This document shows, in pieces, positions 20,054-53,383 of a stretch of DNA of 64,000 nt. The translations under genes and the position numbers were made by a program. How positions within the stretch are numbered: the first letter of the stretch is position 1; the number at the start of each line of letters is the position of its first letter. Origin of the DNA: a virus; IMG/VR virus record IMGVR_UViG_3300037348_000049, positions 65,572 to 129,571 of that record, one strand, 5' to 3'. The notes under the pieces are model-generated. The model was given only the letters and a program-made list of their open reading frames with translations, was not told where the DNA came from and searched no databases.

Positions 20054-20129
20054 TCCGCCTCTAGTTCAAGGGCAGAGCAGCGTTGGAGTTATCTAGCGTG
20101 GGTTCCTGGTTCGAATCCAGGGGGGCGGA
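20054..20129 (+). tRNA. Non-canonical tRNA-like RNA (8/4 fold, enlarged anticodon arm, no encoded CCA)
   Basis: TCCGCCTC/GGGGCGGA acceptor, GTTC/GAGC D-stem, CTGG-TTCGAAT-CCAG T-arm; 20-nt anticodon arm around GTT. Confidence 0.65.
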
Positions 20130-20169
20130 CTTTAAGGTATAATTATGTGTACTGCTAATGAAAGGCTAA

Positions 20170-32504: not shown

Positions 32505-32698
32505 AGTGGAGCAAAGTGGAATGTTGTTAATAAAAGGAGCAAACCCCTTCGTTCTCCCTCTCTCCACGCAAAAATTCGTCCGAGAACTAATCAACAACTT
32601 TTCATGAGTGTACACTTGTTCATTAGGTGGCCCGGGATCAAGTCCTCTCCCCAGTATCTCGGGTCACCCTTAAAACAACTTGACATTACGAGGACGGC

Positions 32699-40153: not shown

Positions 40154-41989
40154 ATGGCACACTACAAAGTAAAGGGTTCAAGGCTTACAAGTCGAGAGAC
40201 AACAGCTAGTCCAGAGTGGCTAAAAGTTGGAAGCCAGATAAGCAAATTTGTCAATGACCTCGCACTTCGAGGCGACCTAGTTGTATTCGTGGGTGGTGAC
40301 GAAGTTGCCGAGGGCGAAGCAGTTGCGGCTTACTACGCCGACATAGCCGAGATTGAGATAAACGCTTCAAAGGCGTTCGGTGAAATTACCAAGCCAGAGT
40401 TCGTTGGAGATTTCAATGAGCGCACAGTCCAGTATGAGTTCCCAATGGCAACTGGAATCATTTTCCACGAAGCACTCCACGCCAAGCACACAGCTTGGGA
40501 CACAAACTACTTGCAGACTCAGCTAGACAACCAAGAAGGTCAAGCTTTCATGTTGCTAGAAGAATCCAGAATCGAAGCCAAGGGCGTTCTTGAGCGACCA
40601 CTAAACAGAGAATTCCTCAGAGCCTCAGCTATTGAAATGGCGCTCGAAGGCGTGGACGAAAAGCAACTGGCAACTCTCGGTAGCGACCTATGGGTCGTTG
40701 CGAATCTTGCAGGGCTATCGCTTGCTCGGTATGACGCCAGAGTTTTGGACAGGTCAGATGTCATAGACATTTACAAGATTGTTGTTTCCATTCTCGGTGA
40801 AAAGCTCTATGAAGATTTGCGCCTAGTTTGGGTTGCGTTCCAAAAGCTCACAGTTCCACAGGTCGAAGAAGCTATTACGCTCTCCAAGAAGTGGGTCGAG
40901 CTATTGCGTGAGGCAGACCCCGAAGGTGAGCCACAGGGAACAGGCTCAGCTTTTGAGTCAAGCGAAGGCGAAGGCGAAGGCGAAGGCAAGTCTCCAAGTG
41001 AAGGCGTTCAAAAGTTGCTCGATAAAATGAGCGACCAAGGAATGACCACAGAGCTTTCAGCTAACGACAAGTTGGCAGACCAAGAGACTCAAGAGAAGTG
41101 GCAGGACGAAGCCAAGGCTCGCCAAGAGGAATCCAAGTCCAAGAATCAGAAACAGGACACAGCTCGAAAAATCTTTGACAAGAGCCATAATGCAACTGGC
41201 TCAAACTCAAACTCGACAGTCAGCGAGCGCCGAGCGCCAACTGGCGGTGAGCGAGCCAGCGCAGTCAAGGTGGCGCAGATGTTAGACAAGGCAAAGTATC
41301 GTGAGCGTTCGGTTCATGTTCGCAAGACTCAAGCGCCACAGGGTCGCCTGATTGCTCGTAATGCCGTCCAGAATAAGGCAAGCGAAGCTATGGGTCGCCG
41401 AGGCGAACTACCAGCTTGGAAGTCGAAGTCTCGCAAGCACACAGACGACCCGACACTACGCCTCGGTATCATGGTGGACATTTCAGGGTCAATGGGTTCT
41501 GCTATGCAAGCTATGGCGACCACAGCGTGGGTCATGGGCGAGGCAGGTCGCCGAATCCAAGCCGAGACAGCTATGGTTTACTACGGCTCGGGTGTATTCC
41601 CTACTCTCCGCAGAGGTCAGAGGCTAGACGAAGTTTCTGTCTACACCGCACCAGACGGAACTGAAAAGTTCGGCGAAGCTTGGAGCGCACTAGACGGCGA
41701 ACTCGGACTGACTTTTGGAACAGGCGTGAGAATGGTTGTCAATGTATCGGACGGACAATACACACCTCAAGAGCGTGAGAGAGCTTTGGCTATGCTCACC
41801 GAGTGCAAGCAAAACGGCGTGGCAGTTCTTTGGATTACTCCAAGAGATTGCTACGGCATGCCAGCGAGCAACCTTATCCGACAGGCGAACTGGGGCGTGC
41901 ATTTAGACCAGCTCGACACCGCTCAGATTGCGTTGCTAGTCGGCAAGTCGGCAAGCGAAGCTTTGGGGAAGGTTGGGGCAAGCGCCTGA
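40154..41989 (+). CDS. HEXXH metallopeptidase-like + VWA domain protein (MoxR partner)
   Basis: FHEALH, LEESRIE, acidic linker, DISGSM MIDAS, T..F, VSDG. Confidence 0.85.
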   Translation: MAHYKVKGSRLTSRETTASPEWLKVGSQISKFVNDLALRGDLVVFVGGDEVAEGEAVAAYYADIAEIEINASKAFGEITKPEFVGDFNERTVQYEFPMATGIIFHEALHAKHTAWDTNYLQTQLDNQEGQAFMLLEESRIEAKGVLERPLNREFLRASAIEMALEGVDEKQLATLGSDLWVVANLAGLSLARYDARVLDRSDVIDIYKIVVSILGEKLYEDLRLVWVAFQKLTVPQVEEAITLSKKWVELLREADPEGEPQGTGSAFESSEGEGEGEGKSPSEGVQKLLDKMSDQGMTTELSANDKLADQETQEKWQDEAKARQEESKSKNQKQDTARKIFDKSHNATGSNSNSTVSERRAPTGGERASAVKVAQMLDKAKYRERSVHVRKTQAPQGRLIARNAVQNKASEAMGRRGELPAWKSKSRKHTDDPTLRLGIMVDISGSMGSAMQAMATTAWVMGEAGRRIQAETAMVYYGSGVFPTLRRGQRLDEVSVYTAPDGTEKFGEAWSALDGELGLTFGTGVRMVVNVSDGQYTPQERERALAMLTECKQNGVAVLWITPRDCYGMPASNLIRQANWGVHLDQLDTAQIALLVGKSASEALGKVGASA

Positions 41990-42078
41990 ACTAACCCATA
42001 ACGGATTGCCTATCCAGAGGTCGAGCTACCCTCAGTTACCGTTTTTCTGAGGATAAGTTCCTGACGGACAGGTAACAG

Positions 42079-42120
42079 AAACCCCAACTACCTTTACCCC
42101 CTTTTTGGTAGTTGGGGTTT
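42079..42120 (+). terminator. Terminator hairpin with C-rich loop
   Basis: AAACCCCAACTACC / GGTAGTTGGGGTTT 14-bp stem, loop TTTACCCCCTTTTT. Confidence 0.8.
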
Positions 42121-42336
42121 CGCCATACCCTGAGGTCAGCAACAGCAAAGCCCGCACTTTTGACCGCACATGAAAAGTCAAGCCCGCCGATCTCGAAACC
42201 AAATCCCGTATCCACTTTTTTACTGACTTCAAACTATTTTCAGAAAAGGCTTCCCTTTTGCTAGGTAACCCTGCTAGGATTGGAGTATCCAATTAGGGCG
42301 AAACAAAAGTAGCCCAAAAAAGAAAGGGGGGACAGA

Positions 42337-42669
42337 ATGGCAACAGCCACTTCGTCCCAGACAGCGTCAGAAGGCACTGTCAAAGTTTCACGACAAATCG
42401 TGGAACTAATCAACGAGCTTTCCGAAGTTCGTTCCACCTACAACACAGCGAAGGCTCGTGTTGAGGAACTCCGCAAGGAAGTTCTATCGCAGGTTGGCAC
42501 AGGCAACTTGACCCTTATCCACCACAACATTGAAGTGGCTCGCATTGTCGAGAGCAACCCAGCTCGTGTTGACCCTAAGTTCTTGGAAGAGAACTTCCCA
42601 GAGGCGTATGAGGCTTCCTTGAAGTCCAGCCAGCAGTTCACCATTCGTTCCGTCACACGAACGAAATAA
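42337..42669 (+). CDS. Cassette protein, paralog of 51775-52128
   Basis: Coiled coil then H..IE.AR....VD...L...FPEAYEA. Confidence 0.75.
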   Translation: MATATSSQTASEGTVKVSRQIVELINELSEVRSTYNTAKARVEELRKEVLSQVGTGNLTLIHHNIEVARIVESNPARVDPKFLEENFPEAYEASLKSSQQFTIRSVTRTK

Positions 42670-42819
42670 CCAGAAGGGGTTGGGCGAAAGCTCAGCCCTT
42701 TTCTCACCACCAGTTCCGTATCCACTTTTTTACTGGAGTTCCGTAAAAACTTCACACCAGAGTTGCAAAGTTGCATCAAGTGTGATTAGATACATACATC
42801 AAACGAAAAGGGAGACAAA

Positions 42820-43176
42820 ATGAACACACCACTAGAGCTAGAAGAAATCACAGCTTTGAGCCTGTCAATAACAGGCGTGTTAGTCGAAAATTATTTGAAG
42901 GAAAGCTACGCCGACCCAACTATGTATCGCGCATTGAGAGTCGCTTGCGGGCTTGCCGAGCAGTATAAGGAAAGGCTTGCGCTAAACGGCTCACCAGAGC
43001 AGATGATACAGGAAGTAGAAGAATTAGTGAATAACCTAAAAGTTACCGCTATGGAATGCGGCGAGATAGTCCAGAAGATTATCGAGGATAACGGCTGGGA
43101 AACCGAGGCTACTGGTTGGGACAGACCGCACAACCACGACAACTGTGACCACGGCGAGGACGGCGAGGATAACTGA
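42820..43176 (+). CDS. Hypothetical cassette protein
   Basis: AAAAGGGAG RBS. Confidence 0.7.
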   Translation: MNTPLELEEITALSLSITGVLVENYLKESYADPTMYRALRVACGLAEQYKERLALNGSPEQMIQEVEELVNNLKVTAMECGEIVQKIIEDNGWETEATGWDRPHNHDNCDHGEDGEDN

Positions 43177-43361
43177 TGCAAACCATAGTGCTACGGCTAC
43201 ACATTGACCAACCGATACCGAACGGCGAGGAAGGCGAGCGTATTATCAACGCCTACATAGACGAGCTTGCCAAAACGAACGGCACGCTTAGCTGGACTTC
43301 TGTGGACTGGGACGGCTTGGAGATTGACGAAACCGAGCATAGATTGGACGGACACTCTTGA
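43176..43361 (+). CDS. Hypothetical cassette protein
   Basis: TGATG coupling. Confidence 0.6.
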   Translation: MQTIVLRLHIDQPIPNGEEGERIINAYIDELAKTNGTLSWTSVDWDGLEIDETEHRLDGHS

Positions 43362-43675
43362 CAATGAGATTCAGGCACGCACTAGGCGAGGTAGTTCGTG
43401 AGCAACGGCTTGCTAAAAGCCTTACCCTAAGAGGCGTGTCCACTAAGGGGTTCGTGTCGATAGGACACCTGTCGGACATTGAACGGGGAGTGAAAGAAGC
43501 CTCGTCAGATACGATCGAAGCGATTGCCAACGGACTGGGTGTCCAGAGCTATTGGCTGATTATCGAAGCTGGCTATCGAATGACGGGCGAAGCCACCTTT
43601 ATTCCAGATACGCCCGAAAGTTTATTTATCCGAAATTCTCGTTGGGTCGAGCAATACTCTGACCTAGTTATCTAG
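43358..43675 (+). CDS. XRE-family HTH regulator, ClgR-like
   Basis: ALGEVVREQR....TLRGVS....VSIGHLSDIERGVKEASS..IEAI..GL. Confidence 0.8.
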   Translation: MTMRFRHALGEVVREQRLAKSLTLRGVSTKGFVSIGHLSDIERGVKEASSDTIEAIANGLGVQSYWLIIEAGYRMTGEATFIPDTPESLFIRNSRWVEQYSDLVI

Positions 43676-43824
43676 GGCAAAACCCGAAAAACCTCGACAC
43701 TTAGGTGTTGGGGTTTTTTGCATTTACTGTGGCGTATCCACTTTTTTACGAACTTCTAGACTGGATTAGGTGTTTTGCTAATTCTGTAGTAAGGTTTAGA
43801 TAACAACAACGAAAGGGGCAACAA

Positions 43825-44034
43825 ATGTACGATAATCCAGAGAGCATCTTGATAGATGCCGAAGAAGCGCAAGAGGAAGGCTTTTGCGAAATGCTCGATG
43901 AAATTTATCCAGTCGTAAAAATGGGAGAACTAACTTTCTACCCGTCACAAATTCTAAAAAGCTGCGACCCCGTTGCATACAGGATCGAGCTAGCTGATTA
44001 CCTCGACGACCTGAACGACAAAATGAATGACTAG
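43825..44034 (+). CDS. Acidic cassette protein, paralog of 45168-45374
   Basis: EMLDEIYP..KMGELTFY.SQILK.CDP.AYRIELADYL. Confidence 0.8.
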   Translation: MYDNPESILIDAEEAQEEGFCEMLDEIYPVVKMGELTFYPSQILKSCDPVAYRIELADYLDDLNDKMND

Positions 44035-44191
44035 GTTCGCAACAGCGCCGAAGCCCTTGCCGAAAGGCAGGGGTTTTTTCGTGCCGTAGGACTGTATCCA
44101 CTTTTTTACTGTCGCCGATTAGTTTGCCGACAACTTGCGGAACGCCGTAATTCGTAGTAAGGTTTAGCTATCAACGAAAAAGGGAGAGAAA

Positions 44192-44374
44192 ATGAAAACT
44201 TACAAAATCACAATGGCACGCGAAGAGACTTGGATGGTCGAAGTCGAAGCTGAGTCCGAAGTGGACGCGCTGATTGCTGGCGAGAGAGAACTAATGTCTG
44301 GCAATGGCGAATCTATTTGGAGTGAGTGGACTGCTGCGCCAGAGTCCGAAGAAGAAGAAGGGGAGGACAACTAA
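44192..44374 (+). CDS. Hypothetical acidic cassette protein
   Basis: AAAAGGGAG RBS. Confidence 0.7.
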   Translation: MKTYKITMAREETWMVEVEAESEVDALIAGERELMSGNGESIWSEWTAAPESEEEEGEDN

Positions 44375-44586
44375 TGGCTAAGCCAAGTATCACTGCGGTA
44401 AAAGAATGGGAACTCGCTTATGAGTCCGAAATGGTTCGTATCGAGTCTGGAACTGCCGTCTTCGATGAGGATTACTGGAAAGTAGTTCCTGCGGGCAAGA
44501 AGGCAACTTATTTCTATGGAGAGTCGGCGTGGAGTGACGCTCAGCGGTTTGCAAGCGACATAGACTCCAAGGCTTGGGTGAGTTGA
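44374..44586 (+). CDS. Hypothetical cassette protein
   Basis: TAATG coupling. Confidence 0.65.
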   Translation: MAKPSITAVKEWELAYESEMVRIESGTAVFDEDYWKVVPAGKKATYFYGESAWSDAQRFASDIDSKAWVS

Positions 44587-44588
44587 GA

Positions 44589-44765
44589 ATGAACACCCTA
44601 GAGGAACGCCGAGAGTTTTGGGCAGACATTGCCAAAAGAAATGGCTGGCATACAGCGCCGTTCTATGTTCAAGTCTGGCAGAATAAAGCTGGCGAGATTT
44701 GGGATAGTGTAAGCCACCAAGGAATGACCAAAGACATAATTACGATTGGAGAGAACTATGAGTAA
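44589..44765 (+). CDS. Hypothetical cassette protein
   Basis: Follows previous stop by 2 nt. Confidence 0.6.
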   Translation: MNTLEERREFWADIAKRNGWHTAPFYVQVWQNKAGEIWDSVSHQGMTKDIITIGENYE

Positions 44766-44835
44766 ATTGCTAGTGAAGCTGGGCTTGAAAAAGCCTGCGG
44801 GCAAACACGCCAAGCGAGCAAGACACGCCAAATAA
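44758..44835 (+). CDS. 25-aa highly basic peptide MSKLLVKLGLKKPAGKHAKRARHAK
   Basis: GGAGA RBS; last ORF before terminator; manual translation. Confidence 0.45.
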   Translation: MSKLLVKLGLKKPAGKHAKRARHAK

Positions 44836-45003
44836 AGTTAGCCCCCCTAACAGAAAGCCCCGTAAGACTTAGTGTCTTGCGGGGTTTTTGTCTCGGCGCT
44901 CGCCGTATCCACTTTTTTACTTGCCGTAAATAATCTTGCCGTAGTGACTTGCGCAATTAGGGGGAACTATGCGATACTTGAGTATCAACAGAAAGGGAAG
45001 ATA

Positions 45004-45168
45004 ATGAGCGAGACAGCGTATTTTTTCACCAAGGAGGAAGCCGAAGCTTTAGCCGATTTGCTAGGGCAGAAGCTTGACAGGAACCCGCTAAGTTATGCGG
45101 TGCTACAGCCAGTCTACAATAAGCTAACTAGGGGCTGGACTTGGAATACAGATGAGGAGAAAAACTAA
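45004..45168 (+). CDS. Hypothetical cassette protein
   Basis: AAAGGGAAG RBS before ATG 45004. Confidence 0.65.
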   Translation: MSETAYFFTKEEAEALADLLGQKLDRNPLSYAVLQPVYNKLTRGWTWNTDEEKN

Positions 45169-45374
45169 TGGACAGCCTATACAAAATGATGGACGACTCA
45201 GCAGAGAACTCAGCAGAGCTATTTGACGAAATGCTAGACGAGTTGTATCCAACTTTCAAAATTGGGGAGCTAACTTTTTACGCTTCACAAATCCTAAAGG
45301 CTTGCGACCCGATCGCATACAGGATTGAACTTGCCGATTACCTGAATGACTTAGGCGACCAACTCAGCGAGTAG
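45168..45374 (+). CDS. Acidic cassette protein, paralog of 43825-44034
   Basis: EMLDELYP..KIGELTFY.SQILK.CDP.AYRIELADYL. Confidence 0.8.
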   Translation: MDSLYKMMDDSAENSAELFDEMLDELYPTFKIGELTFYASQILKACDPIAYRIELADYLNDLGDQLSE

Positions 45375-45535
45375 TGTCACCAAGAACCCCGAGAGTACCC
45401 CGCCGTAAAAAGCGGGGTTTCTTTTTGCCCTGGAGCGTATCCACTTTTTTACTGAGTTTAGATAGACAGGGAGTTGGCTTGACATCTGCCGATAACTCTG
45501 AGATACTGATACTAATCAGAAAGAAGGGCAACAAA

Positions 45536-45646
45536 ATGGATACACAGTTCTGCGAAATCTGCGACAACTACACACCCGTAGTTCTCGACACAGACTCAGA
45601 TGAGGCTTGCCAGTATTGCTATGACGCATACGCAGGAGTTCTCTAA
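45536..45646 (+). CDS. 36-aa zinc-ribbon peptide
   Basis: CEIC...CQYC; AAGGGCAAC RBS. Confidence 0.6.
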   Translation: MDTQFCEICDNYTPVVLDTDSDEACQYCYDAYAGVL

Positions 45647-45864
45647 TGTTCGGGAGCATAGATGGCTCAGGTATTGGACAGGTTCAAATGGAGCGAGAGT
45701 TCACTTGCGGAGAGTGCCTTTGGACAGGTGAGGCGTTAGGTTCAAGTGACGACTTGGTTGAAATGCTTTTTGCCGTATGCCCAAACTGTAAAGAAGAGAT
45801 GACGATTGACCTAGCTCAGGAGCGAGAGTCCGAACACTGGGACGACAAGCCAGACTTCGACTGA
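45646..45864 (+). CDS. Small zinc-ribbon protein
   Basis: CGEC...CPNC. Confidence 0.65.
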   Translation: MFGSIDGSGIGQVQMEREFTCGECLWTGEALGSSDDLVEMLFAVCPNCKEEMTIDLAQERESEHWDDKPDFD

Positions 45865-46036
45865 GCCGTAAACTCACACCCCAATAAAATCCGACAGCGA
45901 GCGGAATTGGGGAGTTTTTCTTTCGCTGAGGTGTATCCACTTTTTTACTACGACTTCGCCGGCGCTCGCAGAAAGAACTTGCGCAATACCGGGCGTTCTG
46001 CTAGGTTTATACCAACAACGAAAGGGAGGAACTCAA

Positions 46037-46420
46037 ATGGGTTCAAGAACACAGTGGGTTATCAAGACTCACGCCAATGGTGACGCAATTCACCTATACA
46101 GTCACTCAGGTGGAGAGTCAAAGTTTTATGACACTCGTGCCGCTCTACTCGCAGCTCAACCTCGATGGAGCGACGTCGCTTATGGTTCACGCATCTTCAT
46201 CAGCAACATTATTGGTGACAACTGGGCCAGCGAAACTGGTTTTGGGTTACTCGGTGGCGACCACGATGAAATTCTTTTCGAAGAGTCCTACTATCCTTCG
46301 ATTATTGATTTTCCGTTGCAGCTAGTAACTATGGGCGGAATGACTTGGAGTTTTGCAGAGTTCCTTTTAGCCGAAGACATTCAAGAAATCTTAGTCGAGC
46401 AACACTGGGCGACTGCCTAA
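46037..46420 (+). CDS. Conserved phage hypothetical protein
   Basis: MG.R...I.LYSH.GG N-terminus; AAAGGGAGG RBS. Confidence 0.7.
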   Translation: MGSRTQWVIKTHANGDAIHLYSHSGGESKFYDTRAALLAAQPRWSDVAYGSRIFISNIIGDNWASETGFGLLGGDHDEILFEESYYPSIIDFPLQLVTMGGMTWSFAEFLLAEDIQEILVEQHWATA

Positions 46421-46689
46421 TGGGGAGCCTACAAGCTGCCGCAATGGCAGACACTGACTTGACACTGGAGCAGGCACTTGCTTGGCATCTACGTTCCAAC
46501 CACTATCCACCCGTGCCTGAGTCGATGGTGCCAACTTGCATAGAAGCCATCAACGCCTACTGGGAAGATGACCTAGACAAAATGGTTAGCCTGCCTGCTG
46601 GCGTAAGTTTCCGAGGAGAAATCGAAGCGCCTGCTAGGGCAATTATTATCTCTCATCACCTTGACATTTGGTGTGCCGAAGAAGAATAA
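46420..46689 (+). CDS. Hypothetical cassette protein
   Basis: TAATG coupling; L.WHL..NHYPPVP. Confidence 0.7.
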   Translation: MGSLQAAAMADTDLTLEQALAWHLRSNHYPPVPESMVPTCIEAINAYWEDDLDKMVSLPAGVSFRGEIEAPARAIIISHHLDIWCAEEE

Positions 46690-46748
46690 GCCCCCCCCCC
46701 CCTAACAACCTTAGTAAGTTGTAAAACTGCTTGCCCCCCCTATAAGAA

Positions 46749-46788
46749 GCGCGAGACAAGTTACCCCCTTTTCCTGTCTCGCGTTTTC
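46749..46788 (+). terminator. Terminator hairpin with C-rich loop
   Basis: CGCGAGACA / TGTCTCGCG stem, loop contains TTACCCCCTTTT, T-run follows. Confidence 0.8.
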
Positions 46789-46900
46789 TTTGGGCGGGAG
46801 TGTATCTACTTTTTTACTGCCGTTTCTACGCCGTTCACAAGAAGTTGCACTTTGTCTGCCGAGTGTGCTAGAGTTTGAGTAACAACAAAGGGAGAACAAA

Positions 46901-47149
46901 ATGAATTCAGAAAATCGCGAAGCCAAAATGGTTTTCGAAATGGTTATGAAGCTAGGCGGAGAGACAAACTACTCCGAGAGAACTAAAGCCGCAATCTGGG
47001 CAGAGTGCTTGAAGCCAGAATTACAAAATCAAGCCTTGCTTTATCTTTCAGGGTCAAGTGAGAGAGCGCATACAAGTCTCTACAACTTGCATACCACGAT
47101 AGTGGACAAGTTCTTTCGTGACCCAATTACCGAAGAATTGAGAGCATAA
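46901..47149 (+). CDS. Hypothetical cassette protein
   Basis: TGC-TAGAGT extended -10, AAAGGGAG RBS. Confidence 0.7.
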   Translation: MNSENREAKMVFEMVMKLGGETNYSERTKAAIWAECLKPELQNQALLYLSGSSERAHTSLYNLHTTIVDKFFRDPITEELRA

Positions 47150-47433
47150 TGAAACCAGAATGGTCTAAAGCTAGAAACAAGTTTCTCGAAACACGAAACA
47201 TAATCTGGGCGCACAAAATTCGTGAAGCCGAACTAAAGGCTAGTGTCTTTTACGGAATTGGAGTGGCTTGCGGTTTCTTTTTGCTAACCAATTTCCTAAC
47301 GCCGTTACCTGATGTTTTGAATGGCTGGCTATCACTAATAGGGGCTGGCGTAATTTTTACAGGGGCTACTATCGTAGTCAATGCCAAAGAAGTTCCACCG
47401 AGAATAAGGAGTGGCGTTGAGTATCGTCGTTAG
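47149..47433 (+). CDS. Two-TM cassette protein
   Basis: Two hydrophobic segments; TAATG coupling. Confidence 0.65.
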   Translation: MKPEWSKARNKFLETRNIIWAHKIREAELKASVFYGIGVACGFFLLTNFLTPLPDVLNGWLSLIGAGVIFTGATIVVNAKEVPPRIRSGVEYRR

Positions 47434-47586
47434 AGAGCTTACAGAGTGTTACAAGTGTGACACGCCGATAATGGCGGAAGTCGAAAGCGTTCACCCACTT
47501 TGCAAGAAGTGTGGCGAGAGTTTTGATGAGTGGTTCAACGCCGAAGTAAAAAAGATTTTGCACTAACTACCTAACCCCCTAAGAAA

Positions 47587-47630
47587 AAACCCCGTCGACC
47601 TTACCCCCTTTTGGTCGACGGGGTTTCTTT
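47587..47630 (+). terminator. Terminator hairpin with C-rich loop
   Basis: AAACCCCGTCGACC / GGTCGACGGGGTTT stem, loop TTACCCCCTTTT. Confidence 0.85.
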
Positions 47631-47783
47631 GTGCCGTTCGTAAAAAGTTACAGCAACTCCAGGCGTATCCACTTTTTTACTCGGCGCTCGCAATTCTGCC
47701 GATGGACTTGCGTTTTCGGTGTTTCTTGATAGGCTTTGATAAGTAACATAAGTTACTAAGTCGCAGAATGAAGGGGCAACAAA

Positions 47784-47984
47784 ATGGGAGTAAAGTATCC
47801 AGAGATTGAAGTTCAACTCACTGGGAATGATGGAAATGCGTATTCAATTATGGGCGCAGTTTCAAAGGCGCTAAAGCGTGCCGAAGTTCCTCAGATAGAA
47901 ATTGACCAATACATAAATCGCTCAATGAGTGGCGACTACGATAACTTGCTACAGACAGCTGCTAGTTGGGTTCAGGTTCGCTGA
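47784..47984 (+). CDS. Conserved small phage protein
   Basis: V.LTG.DGNAYSIMG.V.KAL......SGDYDNLL. Confidence 0.75.
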   Translation: MGVKYPEIEVQLTGNDGNAYSIMGAVSKALKRAEVPQIEIDQYINRSMSGDYDNLLQTAASWVQVR

Positions 47985-48863: not shown

Positions 48864-48876
48864 CCCCCTCAGGGGA

Positions 48877-48915
48877 GTTATCCACAGACTTATCCACACC
48901 CTGTGGATAACTTTT
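48877..48915. promoter_or_regulatory. Three perfect DnaA boxes forming a terminator-like hairpin
   Basis: TTATCCACA 48878-48886 and 48890-48898, TGTGGATAA 48902-48910; outer pair is an 11-bp inverted repeat followed by TTTT. Confidence 0.75.
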
Positions 48916-49050
48916 CCTGGACTCTGGTATCCACTTTTTTACCAAGGTTCCGTGTCGGCGCTCGCGATTTGCTTTTGGCAGAAAATCCTGCTAGGCTATC
49001 GGAGTAGCCAATCAGCTACATACTTGGAAACTAAATAAAGGGAGAGCAAA

Positions 49051-49990: not shown

Positions 49991-50132
49991 AGTTCTTCAA
50001 GCGAGAACCCTAGGGTAATTCCTAGGGTTTTTTCTTGCCCAAAACTTTATTGCCGATTGACTTGACACGATCCAATAAAGCTAGTAATCTATAGATAGAT
50101 AACCAAGGGGGTTATCGGAAAAGGGATTCAGA

Positions 50133-50255
50133 ATGACAATTATCGCAACTTATCCAGATTTCAAAACCGTCACCGTGTCGGTTGATGCTTGGAACGCGGA
50201 CGCCACCGTTGAAGCCTTTATGGAACTGGGCGCATTGTTCGTGACAACCAAGTAG
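50133..50255 (+). CDS. 40-aa cassette peptide
   Basis: Own promoter, AAAAGGG RBS and terminator; manual translation. Confidence 0.6.
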   Translation: MTIIATYPDFKTVTVSVDAWNADATVEAFMELGALFVTTK

Positions 50256-50427
50256 GGGCAACCCTATACCGATCACCCCTAGTCTCTGGCTAGGGGTTTT
50301 CTTTTTGCGAGCGCGAGTAGTCGGTATCCACTTTTTTACGCACTGCTACTTGGGCGCGGGATCGAGTTGCGGTTTGTCGCTTAGCGTGGTAGAGTTGCAC
50401 TACAACAACTAAACAAAGGGAGATAGA

Positions 50428-50598
50428 ATGCAAAAAGATACTACGCCTATTGCCGCCGACATCTACGAGAGAATCGAAATGTCAAAAAATGGTGACAAGG
50501 GAACTGTCTATGATGACTTGTCAGAGACTTTGGAATCTGGTAACTACCAAGAGTTCGAAGATTATTTCGGAGACACTGATCCTTTTGAATTCTTGTAA
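50428..50598 (+). CDS. 56-aa acidic cassette peptide
   Basis: AAAGGGAG RBS; ends DYFGDTDPFEFL; manual translation. Confidence 0.65.
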   Translation: MQKDTTPIAADIYERIEMSKNGDKGTVYDDLSETLESGNYQEFEDYFGDTDPFEFL

Positions 50599-50723
50599 TT
50601 CAAAAAAACAATTAGCCCGCTAGAGATAGCGGGTTTTTTGTTTGCCGTAGAGCTTGACAAGTGACAACTTTAGTATTAGACTTTGGGTATCAACCCAAGG
50701 GGGGTTGGTAAAAAGGAGACAAA

Positions 50724-50966
50724 ATGACTAACCAGACTTACGAGAGAATAGCCAATGTTTCATCTTGGGCGACAATGCTAAGCGGGCTTATTTTTGTAGG
50801 CACACTTGCATCGATCCTTGACCTAAGCAAGGCGGGTTCCTGGTGGCAGAATGAACAGCTAATGCCGGCACTAGCAGACTTTGGTTTAGCTAGTGGTTGG
50901 GTAATGATAATTGCGGCGGTAACTTGGTTCTTGACTTACCGCCGTTACAACTACGGACAGAAATAA
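50724..50966 (+). CDS. Two-TM cassette protein
   Basis: Hydrophobic segments; TTGACA/TAGACT promoter. Confidence 0.65.
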   Translation: MTNQTYERIANVSSWATMLSGLIFVGTLASILDLSKAGSWWQNEQLMPALADFGLASGWVMIIAAVTWFLTYRRYNYGQK

Positions 50967-50978
50967 AGGAGAGACACA

Positions 50979-51152
50979 ATGATCAGAATGGCATTGGTAA
51001 ATCGAGTAGGCGTTAGCCACACGCTTAGTATGGTTCAAGGCGAGACTACAGTTCCCACTTACTTGCTACAGGAGAGTGAGGAGTTCTTAGACTTGCTACG
51101 AACTGCCGTAGAGCTTGAAGAGCTTACCGATTGGGTGAACGAGAACTTTTAG
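50979..51152 (+). CDS. 57-aa cassette peptide
   Basis: AAAGGAG RBS; manual translation. Confidence 0.6.
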   Translation: MIRMALVNRVGVSHTLSMVQGETTVPTYLLQESEEFLDLLRTAVELEELTDWVNENF

Positions 51153-51327
51153 GTTCGAGAGAAGATGCCCCGCTTTTGCGGGGTATTTTTTTGTCTGGCG
51201 GGAGTTTGAGGTATCCACTTTTTTACGAACTGTGATCATAGAGCGCCATCGAGTTGCTCTAAGCCATAGGAGCTGCTAAGCTAATCGTAGTTAGCCCAAG
51301 GGGGCTGCAAAATCAAAGGGGCAAAAA

Positions 51328-51567
51328 ATGTCAGTAATCGCCAAAAATCCTTTCCACAACTGGATTATGGAAAATCACCCAGATTTTTCAGACTTCATCA
51401 AGTTTGCCGGCAACATCGTCAGACTAAACGCCGAGAGTCGTGGAACTCTTTTCGCCGTAGCAATCCCTGCCTACATCGCGCAGCATAACCTTGACTACGA
51501 CAACGCGCTAGACGCGTTCATCGCTTATGAAGTATTCAAGCGCGAGCTTTGGGCTTCAAGGGCTTAG
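51328..51567 (+). CDS. Hypothetical cassette protein
   Basis: AAAGGGG RBS; own terminator. Confidence 0.7.
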   Translation: MSVIAKNPFHNWIMENHPDFSDFIKFAGNIVRLNAESRGTLFAVAIPAYIAQHNLDYDNALDAFIAYEVFKRELWASRA

Positions 51568-51774
51568 AGATCACACCGCAACCCCTAGGGCTAACGCTCT
51601 AGGGGTTTTCCATTGTCTGGCGTGTCTCACGCGTTGCGCGTGTTGCGGTATCCACTTTTTTACTAATTTCTGACACGCCCCGACATCGAGTTGCGCTAAG
51701 TCCTAATCCGTAGTAAGCTAGAGTTACTAGCCAATCGGTTGGTGTTCAAGTTCCACCAAGTAAAGGGGCAAAAA

Positions 51775-52128
51775 ATGTCAGTAACCACCAAGGCGCAAGC
51801 CACCACCACCAAGACCACCAAGGCGACCAAAGTAGTTGTAGGTCAAGTTCGTGAGTTGGTTGAACTACGCGCCGAAATCACACGCCTTGAGAAACTAAAG
51901 GTTGCGATTACCGCCGAAATCGAAATCGCTTTTGGGGTGAACAAGACTTCAAAGACTTCAGAGTTCGACACGCTTACTCACCAAGGTATCGAGTTCGCTC
52001 GCTACGATTGGAGAAGCCGTAAAGGGATTGATGAAGCCAAGTTGGCGCTAGAGTTTCCCGAAGCTTATGAAGCGTGTTTCAAGGCGGACAAGACCGTATT
52101 CGGGCTAGTCGTGTCGCTGTTCAAGTAA
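51775..52128 (+). CDS. Cassette protein, paralog of 42337-42669
   Basis: H.GIEFAR....ID...L..EFPEAYEA. Confidence 0.75.
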   Translation: MSVTTKAQATTTKTTKATKVVVGQVRELVELRAEITRLEKLKVAITAEIEIAFGVNKTSKTSEFDTLTHQGIEFARYDWRSRKGIDEAKLALEFPEAYEACFKADKTVFGLVVSLFK

Positions 52129-52313
52129 CCAGAATACCGAGAGTGCCTCCCGAGAAATCGGGGGGTATTCTGCTGTCTGGATTTTTGGCGGGGCGGGGGT
52201 GTATCTACTTTTTTACTAGAGTTTTTTGCTGTGGGAAAGAACTTGACAAGTTTGCCGTGACCGTGATAGGATTGACTTATCAAGTCAAAGGGGCTTGAGG
52301 ATAAGGGGCAAAG

Positions 52314-52577
52314 ATGAGTAAGCAAAAGGCATTCGCCAAAGTAGCAGAGTTAGGCGCTGCACTCGTTGATGATGGCGGTGTGTATCAGCTCGAAGCACCC
52401 GCTGGAAAAATCTGCGGTGGTGGTGACACTCACACTAGGGCGTTCAGTTACGAGGACGGCATCAAGGACCCGTGGAGTGGCAGGACGGTGTGGCAGGATG
52501 TTCTTGAGGAACTGAAGGATGGCTTTATAGATTGCCCTTATAGGGCGTCGGGGTGTGACTACTGCGATCCCGAGTAG
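52314..52577 (+). CDS. Hypothetical cassette protein
   Basis: AAGGGG RBS; C-terminal CP....CDYCD. Confidence 0.7.
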   Translation: MSKQKAFAKVAELGAALVDDGGVYQLEAPAGKICGGGDTHTRAFSYEDGIKDPWSGRTVWQDVLEELKDGFIDCPYRASGCDYCDPE

Positions 52578-52709
52578 CCACACACTTGCACGCGAAAGAC
52601 CCCGTCCTAGTGACGGGGTTTTTTATTGCCGATTGACTTGACACACTTATGCGCCATACAGTAAGCTTTAGATAGATAGCCAAGGGGGCTATCGGATAAG
52701 GGGTTCAAG

Positions 52710-52874
52710 ATGACTAAGCCATTCGCCGTAGTGTTCGCAGGAGACTTGGGAGATTTCTTTACTCCAGAGTTTTACGCCACCGAAGCAGCTGCCACTGCAC
52801 GACTAATTGAGTGCCGTAACACTCTCAAAGACCCTAGCCAAGTCAAAGTGATGTTGCTAGTCGAGCTTGACTAG
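52710..52874 (+). CDS. 54-aa cassette peptide
   Basis: Own promoter, RBS and terminator; manual translation. Confidence 0.6.
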   Translation: MTKPFAVVFAGDLGDFFTPEFYATEAAATARLIECRNTLKDPSQVKVMLLVELD

Positions 52875-52950
52875 TCACACCAGTTCACCACGCGACCCCT
52901 ACTTTCGAGTGGGGGTTTTCGCGTTACCAAGTTGTTATCAAAAACTTCCT

Positions 52951-53383
52951 GGATTGACTTGACACGCGTGCCGTTATCCTGATAAGTTGAACTTAGTTAG
53001 CCCAAGGGGGGCTGCTAGAAGGGGTTCAAAATGACTTACTACATTCTCAGGAACACCACCACCACTGGTGAACTTGCTTACGCGCATAAAGGCGCTTACC
53101 TAACCCGCAGTGGCGCGCAGACTGCTGCCGACGGGATAAACCCCTACGGGCATCCTTTTACTTTTGCGGTTTATTCTGCCGAAGAACTCAACACCGAGTT
53201 TCTAGCTAAAGGCATAAGGGTTAGCGACTAACCACGCCACACCGCAACCCCTTAGCCATCACGGCTAGGGGGTTTTCCATTGCCCAAAAGTTTTTTATGG
53301 ATTGACTTGACACGCGTGTCGTTATCCTGATAAGCTGAACTTAGTTAGCCCAAGGGGGGCTGCTAGAAGGGGTTCGAAATGAC
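52951..53383 (+). repeat. 85-bp promoter-leader duplication (52951-53035 and 53299-53383)
   Basis: 82 of 85 positions identical by eye, from GGATTGACTTGACAC to ATGAC. Confidence 0.9.
53031..53231 (+). CDS. Hypothetical cassette protein
   Basis: Between the two 85-bp repeats. Confidence 0.7.
   Translation: MTYYILRNTTTTGELAYAHKGAYLTRSGAQTAADGINPYGHPFTFAVYSAEELNTEFLAKGIRVSD

Follow-up and report, generated by a model that had tools for sequence, protein, structure and literature searches.

Riboregulation in Actinobacteria does without Hfq and proceeds via C-rich loops. In other bacterial regulators, namely RNAIII, RsaE/RoxS, and FsrA, a UCCC-type loop motif pairs with the Shine–Dalgarno (SD) sequence. 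In Staphylococcus aureus icaR, an anti-SD motif in the 3' untranslated region (UTR) of a coding mRNA acts on that same mRNA. Regarding the phages that infect Actinobacteria, almost no regulatory RNAs are known. Here, we describe recurrent C-rich loops, and a new structured RNA that houses one of them, in a tailed phage whose predicted host is actinobacterial. Specifically, we analyzed a window of 64,000 nucleotides (nt) comprising positions 65,572 to 129,571 of IMG/VR record IMGVR_UViG_3300037348_000049. The whole phage genome spans 129,571 bp, and all coordinates below are positions in the window. The loops lie at the 3' ends of three transcripts, at sites that we call locus I, locus II, and locus III.

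The closest precedent is the actinobacterial 6C small RNA (sRNA) (RF01066; B11 in mycobacteria), named for the six or more conserved cytosines in each of two loops (PMC5014011). Loop L3 of 6C, UCCUCCCCCCCU, binds the panD ribosome-binding site (RBS), AGGGGGG, with no chaperone, neither Hfq nor ProQ being required (PMC6486639). The mycobacterial 6C regulon includes dnaB and panD, and overexpression of 6C stops growth (PMC6486639). In Listeria, LhrC uses a CUCCC...UUUU motif in its terminator loop to bind the SD region (PMC4132741), and that paper also cites RNAIII, RsaE, and FsrA. An earlier note on this DNA, made from the sequence alone, took staphylococcal RNAIII as its precedent. The analogy between a C-rich loop and an SD sequence holds, but it is 6C, rather than RNAIII, that lies closest.

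The 12-mer TTACCCCCTTTT occurs at 42094–42105, 46761–46772, and 47601–47612, all on the plus strand. No further copy is present in the window at one mismatch or fewer, and no further exact copy in the 129,571-bp genome, on either strand; shuffled versions of the window average 0.32 matches. Each copy falls inside the loop of a strong plus-strand hairpin, and all three hairpins display UUACCCCCUUUU at transcript ends. Their loops measure 12–16 nt. By comparison, the approximately 20 other terminator-like hairpins in the surrounding array of small genes (38–54 kb) have loops of 3–8 nt, mostly of four (GAAA, TTAG, TAAC, and similar). Given that difference, the loops are not optimized for termination. 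Terminator design does not account for three long, identical loops, which stand out as a genuine anomaly.

The earlier note had claimed one 12-nt loop shared by three hairpins with unrelated stems. The exact copies bear out the loop. As to the stems, the claim holds for stem 2 but not for stems 1 and 3, which are alike at 10 of 14 positions, with four central pairs compensatory, and follow the common pattern AAACCCC-N4-ACC / GGT-N4-GGGGTTT. Hairpin 2 can alternatively be drawn with a 12-nt loop closed by a single isolated G–C pair. Hairpins 2 and 3 have the makeup of intrinsic terminators, a G+C-rich stem and then a U tract (UUUUCUUU and UUUCUUU, respectively). The tail of hairpin 1 is only UUUCGCC, a weak U tract that is kept in nearly all of 30 sequences of its locus.

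Hairpin 1 is one part of a larger RNA, the conserved locus I, which the earlier note missed along with the 6C precedent. Locus I begins no more than about 12 nt from the stop codon of a gene for a 611-amino-acid (aa) CobT-like protein, and it invariably follows that gene. In relatives, in which the protein is 65–69% identical, the approximately 130 nt past the stop codon are far better conserved than the protein itself. The element consists of helix P1, helix P2, hairpin A, and a terminal hairpin B, which is hairpin 1. We built a covariance model, R1, from eight sequences, and we retrieved more copies from viral and metagenome contigs with a pattern of the conserved core, for a set of 30 distinct versions. 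R1 scores 131 bits in the window and finds one full-length copy per related contig, at 89–141 bits.

In the 30-sequence alignment, which was fitted to R1 and hence somewhat favors that structure, 95.9% of cells are paired, 15 of 34 pairs show compensatory changes, and 96 cells are doubly changed compared with 27.5 in shuffles. None of 500 shuffles matches the observed pairing and covariation values, and slid controls fall to 35–56% pairing. A count made independently of the model over the first eight sequences gives the same picture. Locus I is a genuine structured RNA and represents a new family. RNAalifold, applied to a plain MAFFT alignment of the 30 sequences, mis-folded the 5' domain owing to indels in hairpin A, and for that reason the model-guided alignment was used.

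Database comparisons yield no relative. The window is empty at Rfam gathering thresholds, and relaxed thresholds return only chance-level, subthreshold rows (rli22, sar, CopA, and others). A blastn search of locus I against 50,697 GenBank phages gives no match. The core pattern matches 14 times in 185,579 bacterial species genomes, each time by chance, with the rest of the element absent. Since bacterial genomes gave chance matches only, the locus I RNA is not visibly host-derived.

What locus I preserves, on changing stems, is a pair of C-rich loops. Loop A has C5–7 in 27 of the 30 sequences (C6 or more in 25, exactly C6 in 23), and loop B has C4–9 in 29 (C5 in 15, C6 or more in 10). The loops are 41–47% C, 35–40% U, and 7–10% G, and their flanks (UUA...UUUU) are conserved too. 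Stem B, by contrast, occurs with 14 different 5' arms, and 9 of its 15 pairs carry compensatory changes. In the window copy, loop A is reduced to CCG, and loop B, TTTACCCCCTTTTT, has C5. In population contigs that cover hairpin A, positions 42041 (G in the window) and 42042 (T in the window) both read C and one more C is inserted, so that the loop regains a C run; many of these contigs carry TTTATCCCC in loop B, as do contigs L002 and L053. Outside the loops, the element has an invariant core (GGUUGAGC, UAGUUCC, and AACGGA), and P2 and the junction do not vary among the 30 sequences. The sole locus I copy lacking C runs lies on a metagenome contig (L090, 2504–2633) and has loops TTTCCCTATCG and CTTTTTCTCGTTTCGG. 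Its first downstream gene has an apparently G-poor site, UAGAAAGUAAAUCAA-AUG, a single anecdote in which loop and site may have changed together.

Locus II is the 3' UTR of a gene for a 114-aa protein. A C-loop site follows the homolog of that gene in relatives L003, L004, L005, and L007, and further lineages are L049 and L081. L009 has a similar pair of C-loop hairpins elsewhere. In relatives, the site has one or two hairpins with C5–6 loops (examples are TTACCCCCCTTC, TTCCCCCCTTT, TTATCCCCCTTC, and ATTCCCCC), often with C tracts ahead of them, on stems that have no similarity to one another. Judging from these contigs, the C loops of locus II are kept in every relative lineage in which the flanking gene was found. 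In L049, the 14-mer loop of hairpin 1, TTTACCCCCTTTTT, sits on an unrelated stem. The check suggested in the earlier note, namely whether the loop persists in relatives despite stem divergence, thus has a strong outcome, with the many stem-B arms at locus I and the unrelated stems at locus II. The C12 and C7 tracts of locus II differ in length from one population to another, by 2 and 1 bases respectively, and L002 has C5 and C6 at those positions; the tracts are slippage-prone homopolymers in a non-coding 3' UTR.

Locus III is seen only in the window's own lineage, in which a strain variant (L053) has loop TTATCCCCTTTT and an altered stem. R1 positions 81–122 match hairpin 3 (27.4 bits, expect value (E) 3.6e-4), and on the basis of that match, hairpin 3 is probably a duplicated hairpin B. 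The C tracts that the earlier note placed after stop codons are present as a C6 and a C12 run (Table 1). An ordinary terminator at 44853–44889 lies just downstream of the C6 tract, and the tract's TTAG(T)CCCCCCTAAC motif recurs at 67484 and 71274 in the complete, 154-kb genome of relative G002. In G002, strong C-run-loop hairpins are confined to locus II and one further hairpin, described below, in a census that excluded the locus I copy with its shorter or interrupted stems; the covariance model found that copy. Across relatives, 22 C-run loop hairpins lie on the transcribed strand and 3 on the other.

Table 1. Positions of the C-loop elements and of their candidate targets in the window
Feature	Coordinates	Strand	Properties
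Locus I structured RNA	42002–42128	+	~127 nt; directly 3' of the stop codon of the 611-aa CobT-like gene; covariance model R1
Hairpin A of locus I	42030–42052	+	window loop degenerate, TTACCGTTTTT
Hairpin 1 (hairpin B of locus I)	42078–42121	+	15-bp stem, 14-nt loop, -31 kcal/mol, z score -7.1
Locus II, 3' UTR of 114-aa gene	46691–46787	+	C12 at 46691–46702, C7 at 46734–46740, hairpin 2
Hairpin 2 (locus II)	46746–46787	+	13-bp stem, 16-nt loop, z score -2.35
Locus III, after 51-aa gene	47575–47626	+	C5 tract at 47575–47579 and terminator hairpin 3
Hairpin 3 (locus III)	47587–47626	+	14-bp stem, 12-nt loop, z score -4.5
C6 tract in 3' UTR	44842–44847	+	flanks GTTAG/CTAAC, possible 5-bp mini-hairpin
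Candidate target: G6 SD of 110-aa gene	42326–42331	+	GAAAGGGGGGACAGA-ATG; loop duplex -15.7 kcal/mol
Candidate targets: six leader hairpins with AAGGG(G) loops	50098–53362	+	loop duplexes -12.8 to -15.0 kcal/mol

Locus I shares the phylum of 6C, by way of the phage host, and broadly resembles it in its two hairpins with loops of about six cytosines, a count that loop A reaches more often than loop B. Several features set the two apart. The phage RNA is approximately 127 nt long, with the extra helices P1 and P2, whereas 6C is approximately 80 nt long. The phage RNA resides in the 3' UTR of a protein gene, whereas 6C is a stand-alone, promoter-driven chromosomal gene. Phage loop B is usually C5, and the flanks of the phage loops are U-rich (UUACCCCCUUUU), unlike 6C loop L3 (UCCUCCCCCCCU). 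The RF01066 model (threshold 47 bits) has no match in the whole phage genome at E values up to 10, and 6C is absent from the matches up to E 5–10 in L003, L004, L007, L050, L063, L074, L080, and window positions 41900–47800. A literature search found no link between 6C RNA and actinobacteriophages.

Regarding the LhrC family (clan CL00114, rli22 RF01457), the rli22 terminator loop UUUACUCCCUUUUU aligns to phage UUUACCCCCUUUUU. Membership is rejected: the match, to hairpin 1 only, reaches 26.3 bits (E 0.45), whereas the gathering score is 80. LhrC, moreover, is encoded by multicopy stand-alone sRNA genes on a Firmicute chromosome, and its motif is UCCC, as opposed to the phage C5–6. Given that the covariance models fail and that the element lies in a phage 3' UTR rather than in a stand-alone gene, locus I probably works like 6C and LhrC but falls outside both families. 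The phage C loops also recall icaR, with its UCCC-type motif in the 3' UTR of a protein-coding mRNA, since they too lie in mRNA 3' ends. However, icaR, RNAIII, RsaE, and FsrA are bacterial, while the C loops here are carried by a phage. Furthermore, a purely intramolecular contact between 5' and 3' ends is not the best fit, because the loop-carrying cassettes have weaker matches (AAAGGGAGA) than do other cassettes.

Potential partners for the loops abound nearby. The three hairpins belong to the left portion of an array in which small genes are grouped into cassettes, each laid out as a 16-bp motif, a sigma-70-like -35/-10 pair, a short leader, an RBS, one to three small genes, and a terminator. 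The motif, TATCCACTTTTTTACT, has 18 plus-strand copies between 36902 and 53839. The RBS of the first genes of cassettes is stereotyped, AAAGGG(G/A), 6–7 nt ahead of the ATG. The loop core CCCCCUUU and the RBS signature of the array, AAAGGGGG, are exact complements, and AAGGGGG, the complement of the loop's CCCCCUU, recurs in the loops of six 5' leaders (50098–50116, 50688–50710, ~51292, 52675–52693, 52998–53014, and 53346–53362). The earlier note had claimed complementarity to AAAGGG(G) RBSs and to AAGGG leader loops; both signatures exist, and the complementarity is real.

C runs and G runs are distributed differently across the array. C runs of at least 5 outside stems, at 42097, 44842, 46691, 46734 (C7), 46764, 47575 (C5), 47604, and 48864 (C5), are all on the transcribed strand, within 3' UTRs or other non-coding DNA, whereas G runs of at least 5 outside stems lie in 5' leaders, as at 44960, or in SD sequences. 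The first gene downstream of locus I, which encodes a 110-aa protein (42337–42669), has a G6 SD sequence. In 20 loci, a homolog of this gene comes after locus I, in most cases at +204 to +257, and all 20 have an SD sequence with G4–6, at protein identities of 36–95%. The leader of the 110-aa gene (42270–42336) also has two small hairpins, GGATTGGAGTATCCAAT and GGGCGAAACAAAAGTAGCCC, just before the G-rich SD sequence, and both are kept in lineages across that range of protein identity.

G-rich sites characterize the clade as well. Among SD-bearing starts, the share with G4 or more is 22–59% in the clade as opposed to 5% in Actinomycetia phage DSL-LC01, which shows no C loops in the 20 kb examined. 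Two of the G-rich loops in L003 have the sequence AAGGGGGUA, which is complementary to UACCCCCUU over 9 nt. A single U-to-C change separates the loop core CCCCCUUU from ACCUCCUUU, the generic 16S anti-SD, and converts a G–U wobble with GGGG-type sites into a G–C pair. For the 12-mer and regions from -30 to +3, computed duplex energies range from -10 to -16 kcal/mol where the partner is a GGGG-type site or a leader loop, and the duplexes of the GGGG class are equal to or stronger than those formed by the generic 16S anti-SD. The lineage comparisons above carry more weight than these energies.

The hypothesis is that the C-rich loops are the single-stranded seeds of regulatory RNA modules in the 3' ends of three phage transcripts, a proposal to which we assign an even chance. 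Locus I would be the main module, with two hairpins that each normally present about six cytosines between uridines, and loci II and III would be simpler 3' UTRs that combine C tracts with a C-loop terminator. The exposed CCCCCUUU would pair with AAAGGGG(G) in G-rich SD sequences, and its CCCCCUU part with AAGGGGG in the 5'-leader loops of the phage's own cassette genes. The 110-aa gene directly downstream of locus I is the first candidate target. Pairing would block ribosome access or alter mRNA stability. The RNA could act in trans, whether as a stable fragment from the 3' end or within the intact mRNA. It could also act in cis if transcription reads through, which is plausible given the weak UUUCGCC tail of hairpin B. 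Host messages may form another class of targets. Base pairing appears to be the best and simplest reading that covers the motif, the structure, its conservation and covariation, the strand specificity, and the complementarity. The interpretation in the earlier note, that phage RNAs from 3' ends occlude G-rich RBSs, is partly supported by these sequence comparisons; the host translation takeover that it also offered is without support.

Several considerations weigh against base pairing. We infer, rather than observe, that the RNA accumulates, pairs, and affects translation. Duplex energies do not discriminate: shuffled C/U-rich loops of the same composition average -7.7 kcal/mol and the real loop -9.0 kcal/mol, a difference of about 1.6 standard deviations. 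The loop-carrying cassettes themselves use AAAGGGAGA, which pairs more poorly, and some C6-loop loci, for example those of L080 and L052, precede a gene with an ordinary SD sequence. Across lineages, the lengths of C runs and G runs show no co-variation. The window's own hairpin A has no C run. Finally, the invariant core of locus I is conserved beyond what a scaffold for loops needs, which the pairing model leaves unexplained.

That last point is where a protein-based explanation gains its appeal. The loops and the invariant core of locus I could be binding sites for a phage or host protein, for example, a KH-type protein that binds poly(C), a factor acting in termination or antitermination, or a nuclease, with a role in mRNA stability, processing, or termination control. 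An invariant P2 and junction are typical of RNA that contacts a protein or ligand, the exact loop flanks (UUA...UUUU) are conserved, and the authors of the Corynebacterium 6C study raised protein binding to explain the high stability of that RNA (PMC5014011). We nonetheless judge this explanation unlikely. We identified no candidate RNA-binding protein beside the elements, where the neighboring small proteins have no informative family in Pfam or PHROGs. Furthermore, a protein would leave unexplained both the G-rich signatures in 5' leaders and the conserved downstream G4–6 SD sequence, which base pairing would accommodate. A more specific version of the pairing model, that the phage makes, in the locus I RNA, a functional mimic of host 6C, is improbable: during infection, the RNA would enter the 6C regulon via two C6 loops, stopping host replication and division while timing the phage genes that have G-rich SD sequences.

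Rho offers a lesser rival, for the unstructured C tracts. Rut sites are long, degenerate, unstructured stretches of C-rich, G-poor RNA upstream of the release point, and locus II is C-rich and G-poor for about 55 nt directly past the stop codon. Together with the poor U tract of hairpin B in nearly all 30 sequences, this suggests that C tracts and loops could load Rho or otherwise assist termination, reinforcing weak intrinsic terminators. We find that possibility even more doubtful: an exact loop of 12–14 nt recurs on unrelated stems, locus I is highly structured and not G-poor, and the approximately 20 other terminators of the array do without a C tract. Least probable of all is a role at the DNA level, as a protein site, a cruciform, or a recombination hotspot for cassettes, or no role at all, the loops being remnants of a duplicated terminator module. 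Population contigs do reorder cassettes, with one joint at 47630, where hairpin 3 ends; hairpins 1 and 3 resemble paralogs; and the loop loosely resembles the array motif (ATCCACTTTT versus ACCCCCTTTT). However, in the stretches examined, L003 and L004 have no TATCCAC array motif at two mismatches or fewer, yet they keep C loops. The motif falls exactly in the unpaired loop, on the transcribed strand, and it is kept while stems turn over completely, the opposite of the neutral decay of a duplicate.

The genome in which these elements reside encodes a large terminase, a portal protein, and a ribonucleotide reductase, as befits a tailed phage. A gene for a CobS-like AAA ATPase precedes that for the 611-aa CobT-like protein. 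We assign the phage to an actinobacterial host because it encodes two WhiB-family proteins; WhiB is a hallmark of Actinobacteria and their phages. The nearest named phage is DSL-LC01 (large terminase 73% identical), in which a gene annotated for a cobalamin biosynthesis protein occupies the place of the 611-aa gene. DSL-LC01 has an ordinary hairpin at the syntenic site and no hairpin with a C5 or longer loop in the 20 kb examined, and the cassette motif was not found in it. The public sequencing runs that contain the phage DNA are salt-lake metagenomes (DNA contigs), with no RNA run among those listed; four of these data sets revealed strain variation.

Other features of the window merit mention. 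Cassettes are shuffled, lost, or duplicated between strains, and salt-lake contigs join their boundaries in other orders; examples of joints within 42789–47630 are 42789>44165, 44907>45997, and 47630>43808. A hairpin at 48872–48916 contains three perfect copies of the 9-mer TTATCCACA, two on the plus strand and one on the minus strand. This 9-mer is the classical DnaA-box consensus. The array motif TATCCACTTTTTTACT could be a DnaA-box-like protein site, given the TATCCAC core that it shares with TTATCCACA. At 32626–32668, a 13-bp hairpin with a 17-nt loop, CAAGUCCUCUCCCCAGU, lies just upstream of a perfect TTGACA-17-TAGAAT promoter and has no U tract. Its loop core, GUCCUCUCCCCAGU, is identical in L001, L004, L005, and L007, on stems that differ and covary. 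This loop resembles 6C loop L3 (PMC6486639), and it may be a further member of the C/U-rich loop system. Finally, ARAGORN predicts a tRNA-like gene at 20055–20130 whose anticodon has four bases (gtta) and to which no amino acid is assigned.

Here, we have focused on C-rich loops at the 3' ends of phage transcripts. These comparisons reveal a structured RNA family that is new, absent from Rfam and from sequenced phages, and represented by 30 distinct sequences with strong covariation. The C-loop logic of actinobacterial riboregulation recurs inside phage mRNA 3' ends, with concrete candidate partners in the G4–6 SD sequence of a neighboring gene and in six leaders with G-rich loops. What sets this case apart is that the host is actinobacterial, that the loops come as a pair resembling that of 6C, and that one loop is used again in several terminators of cassettes that encode proteins. 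If base pairing is indeed how the loops act, a virus uses or copies a code of the 6C type, either for the timing of its early genes or for taking over host translation, and terminator loops may be reusable as regulatory seeds across an array of gene cassettes. Mimicry of 6C itself, if true, would mean that a virus has convergently captured a riboregulatory code used across a phylum.

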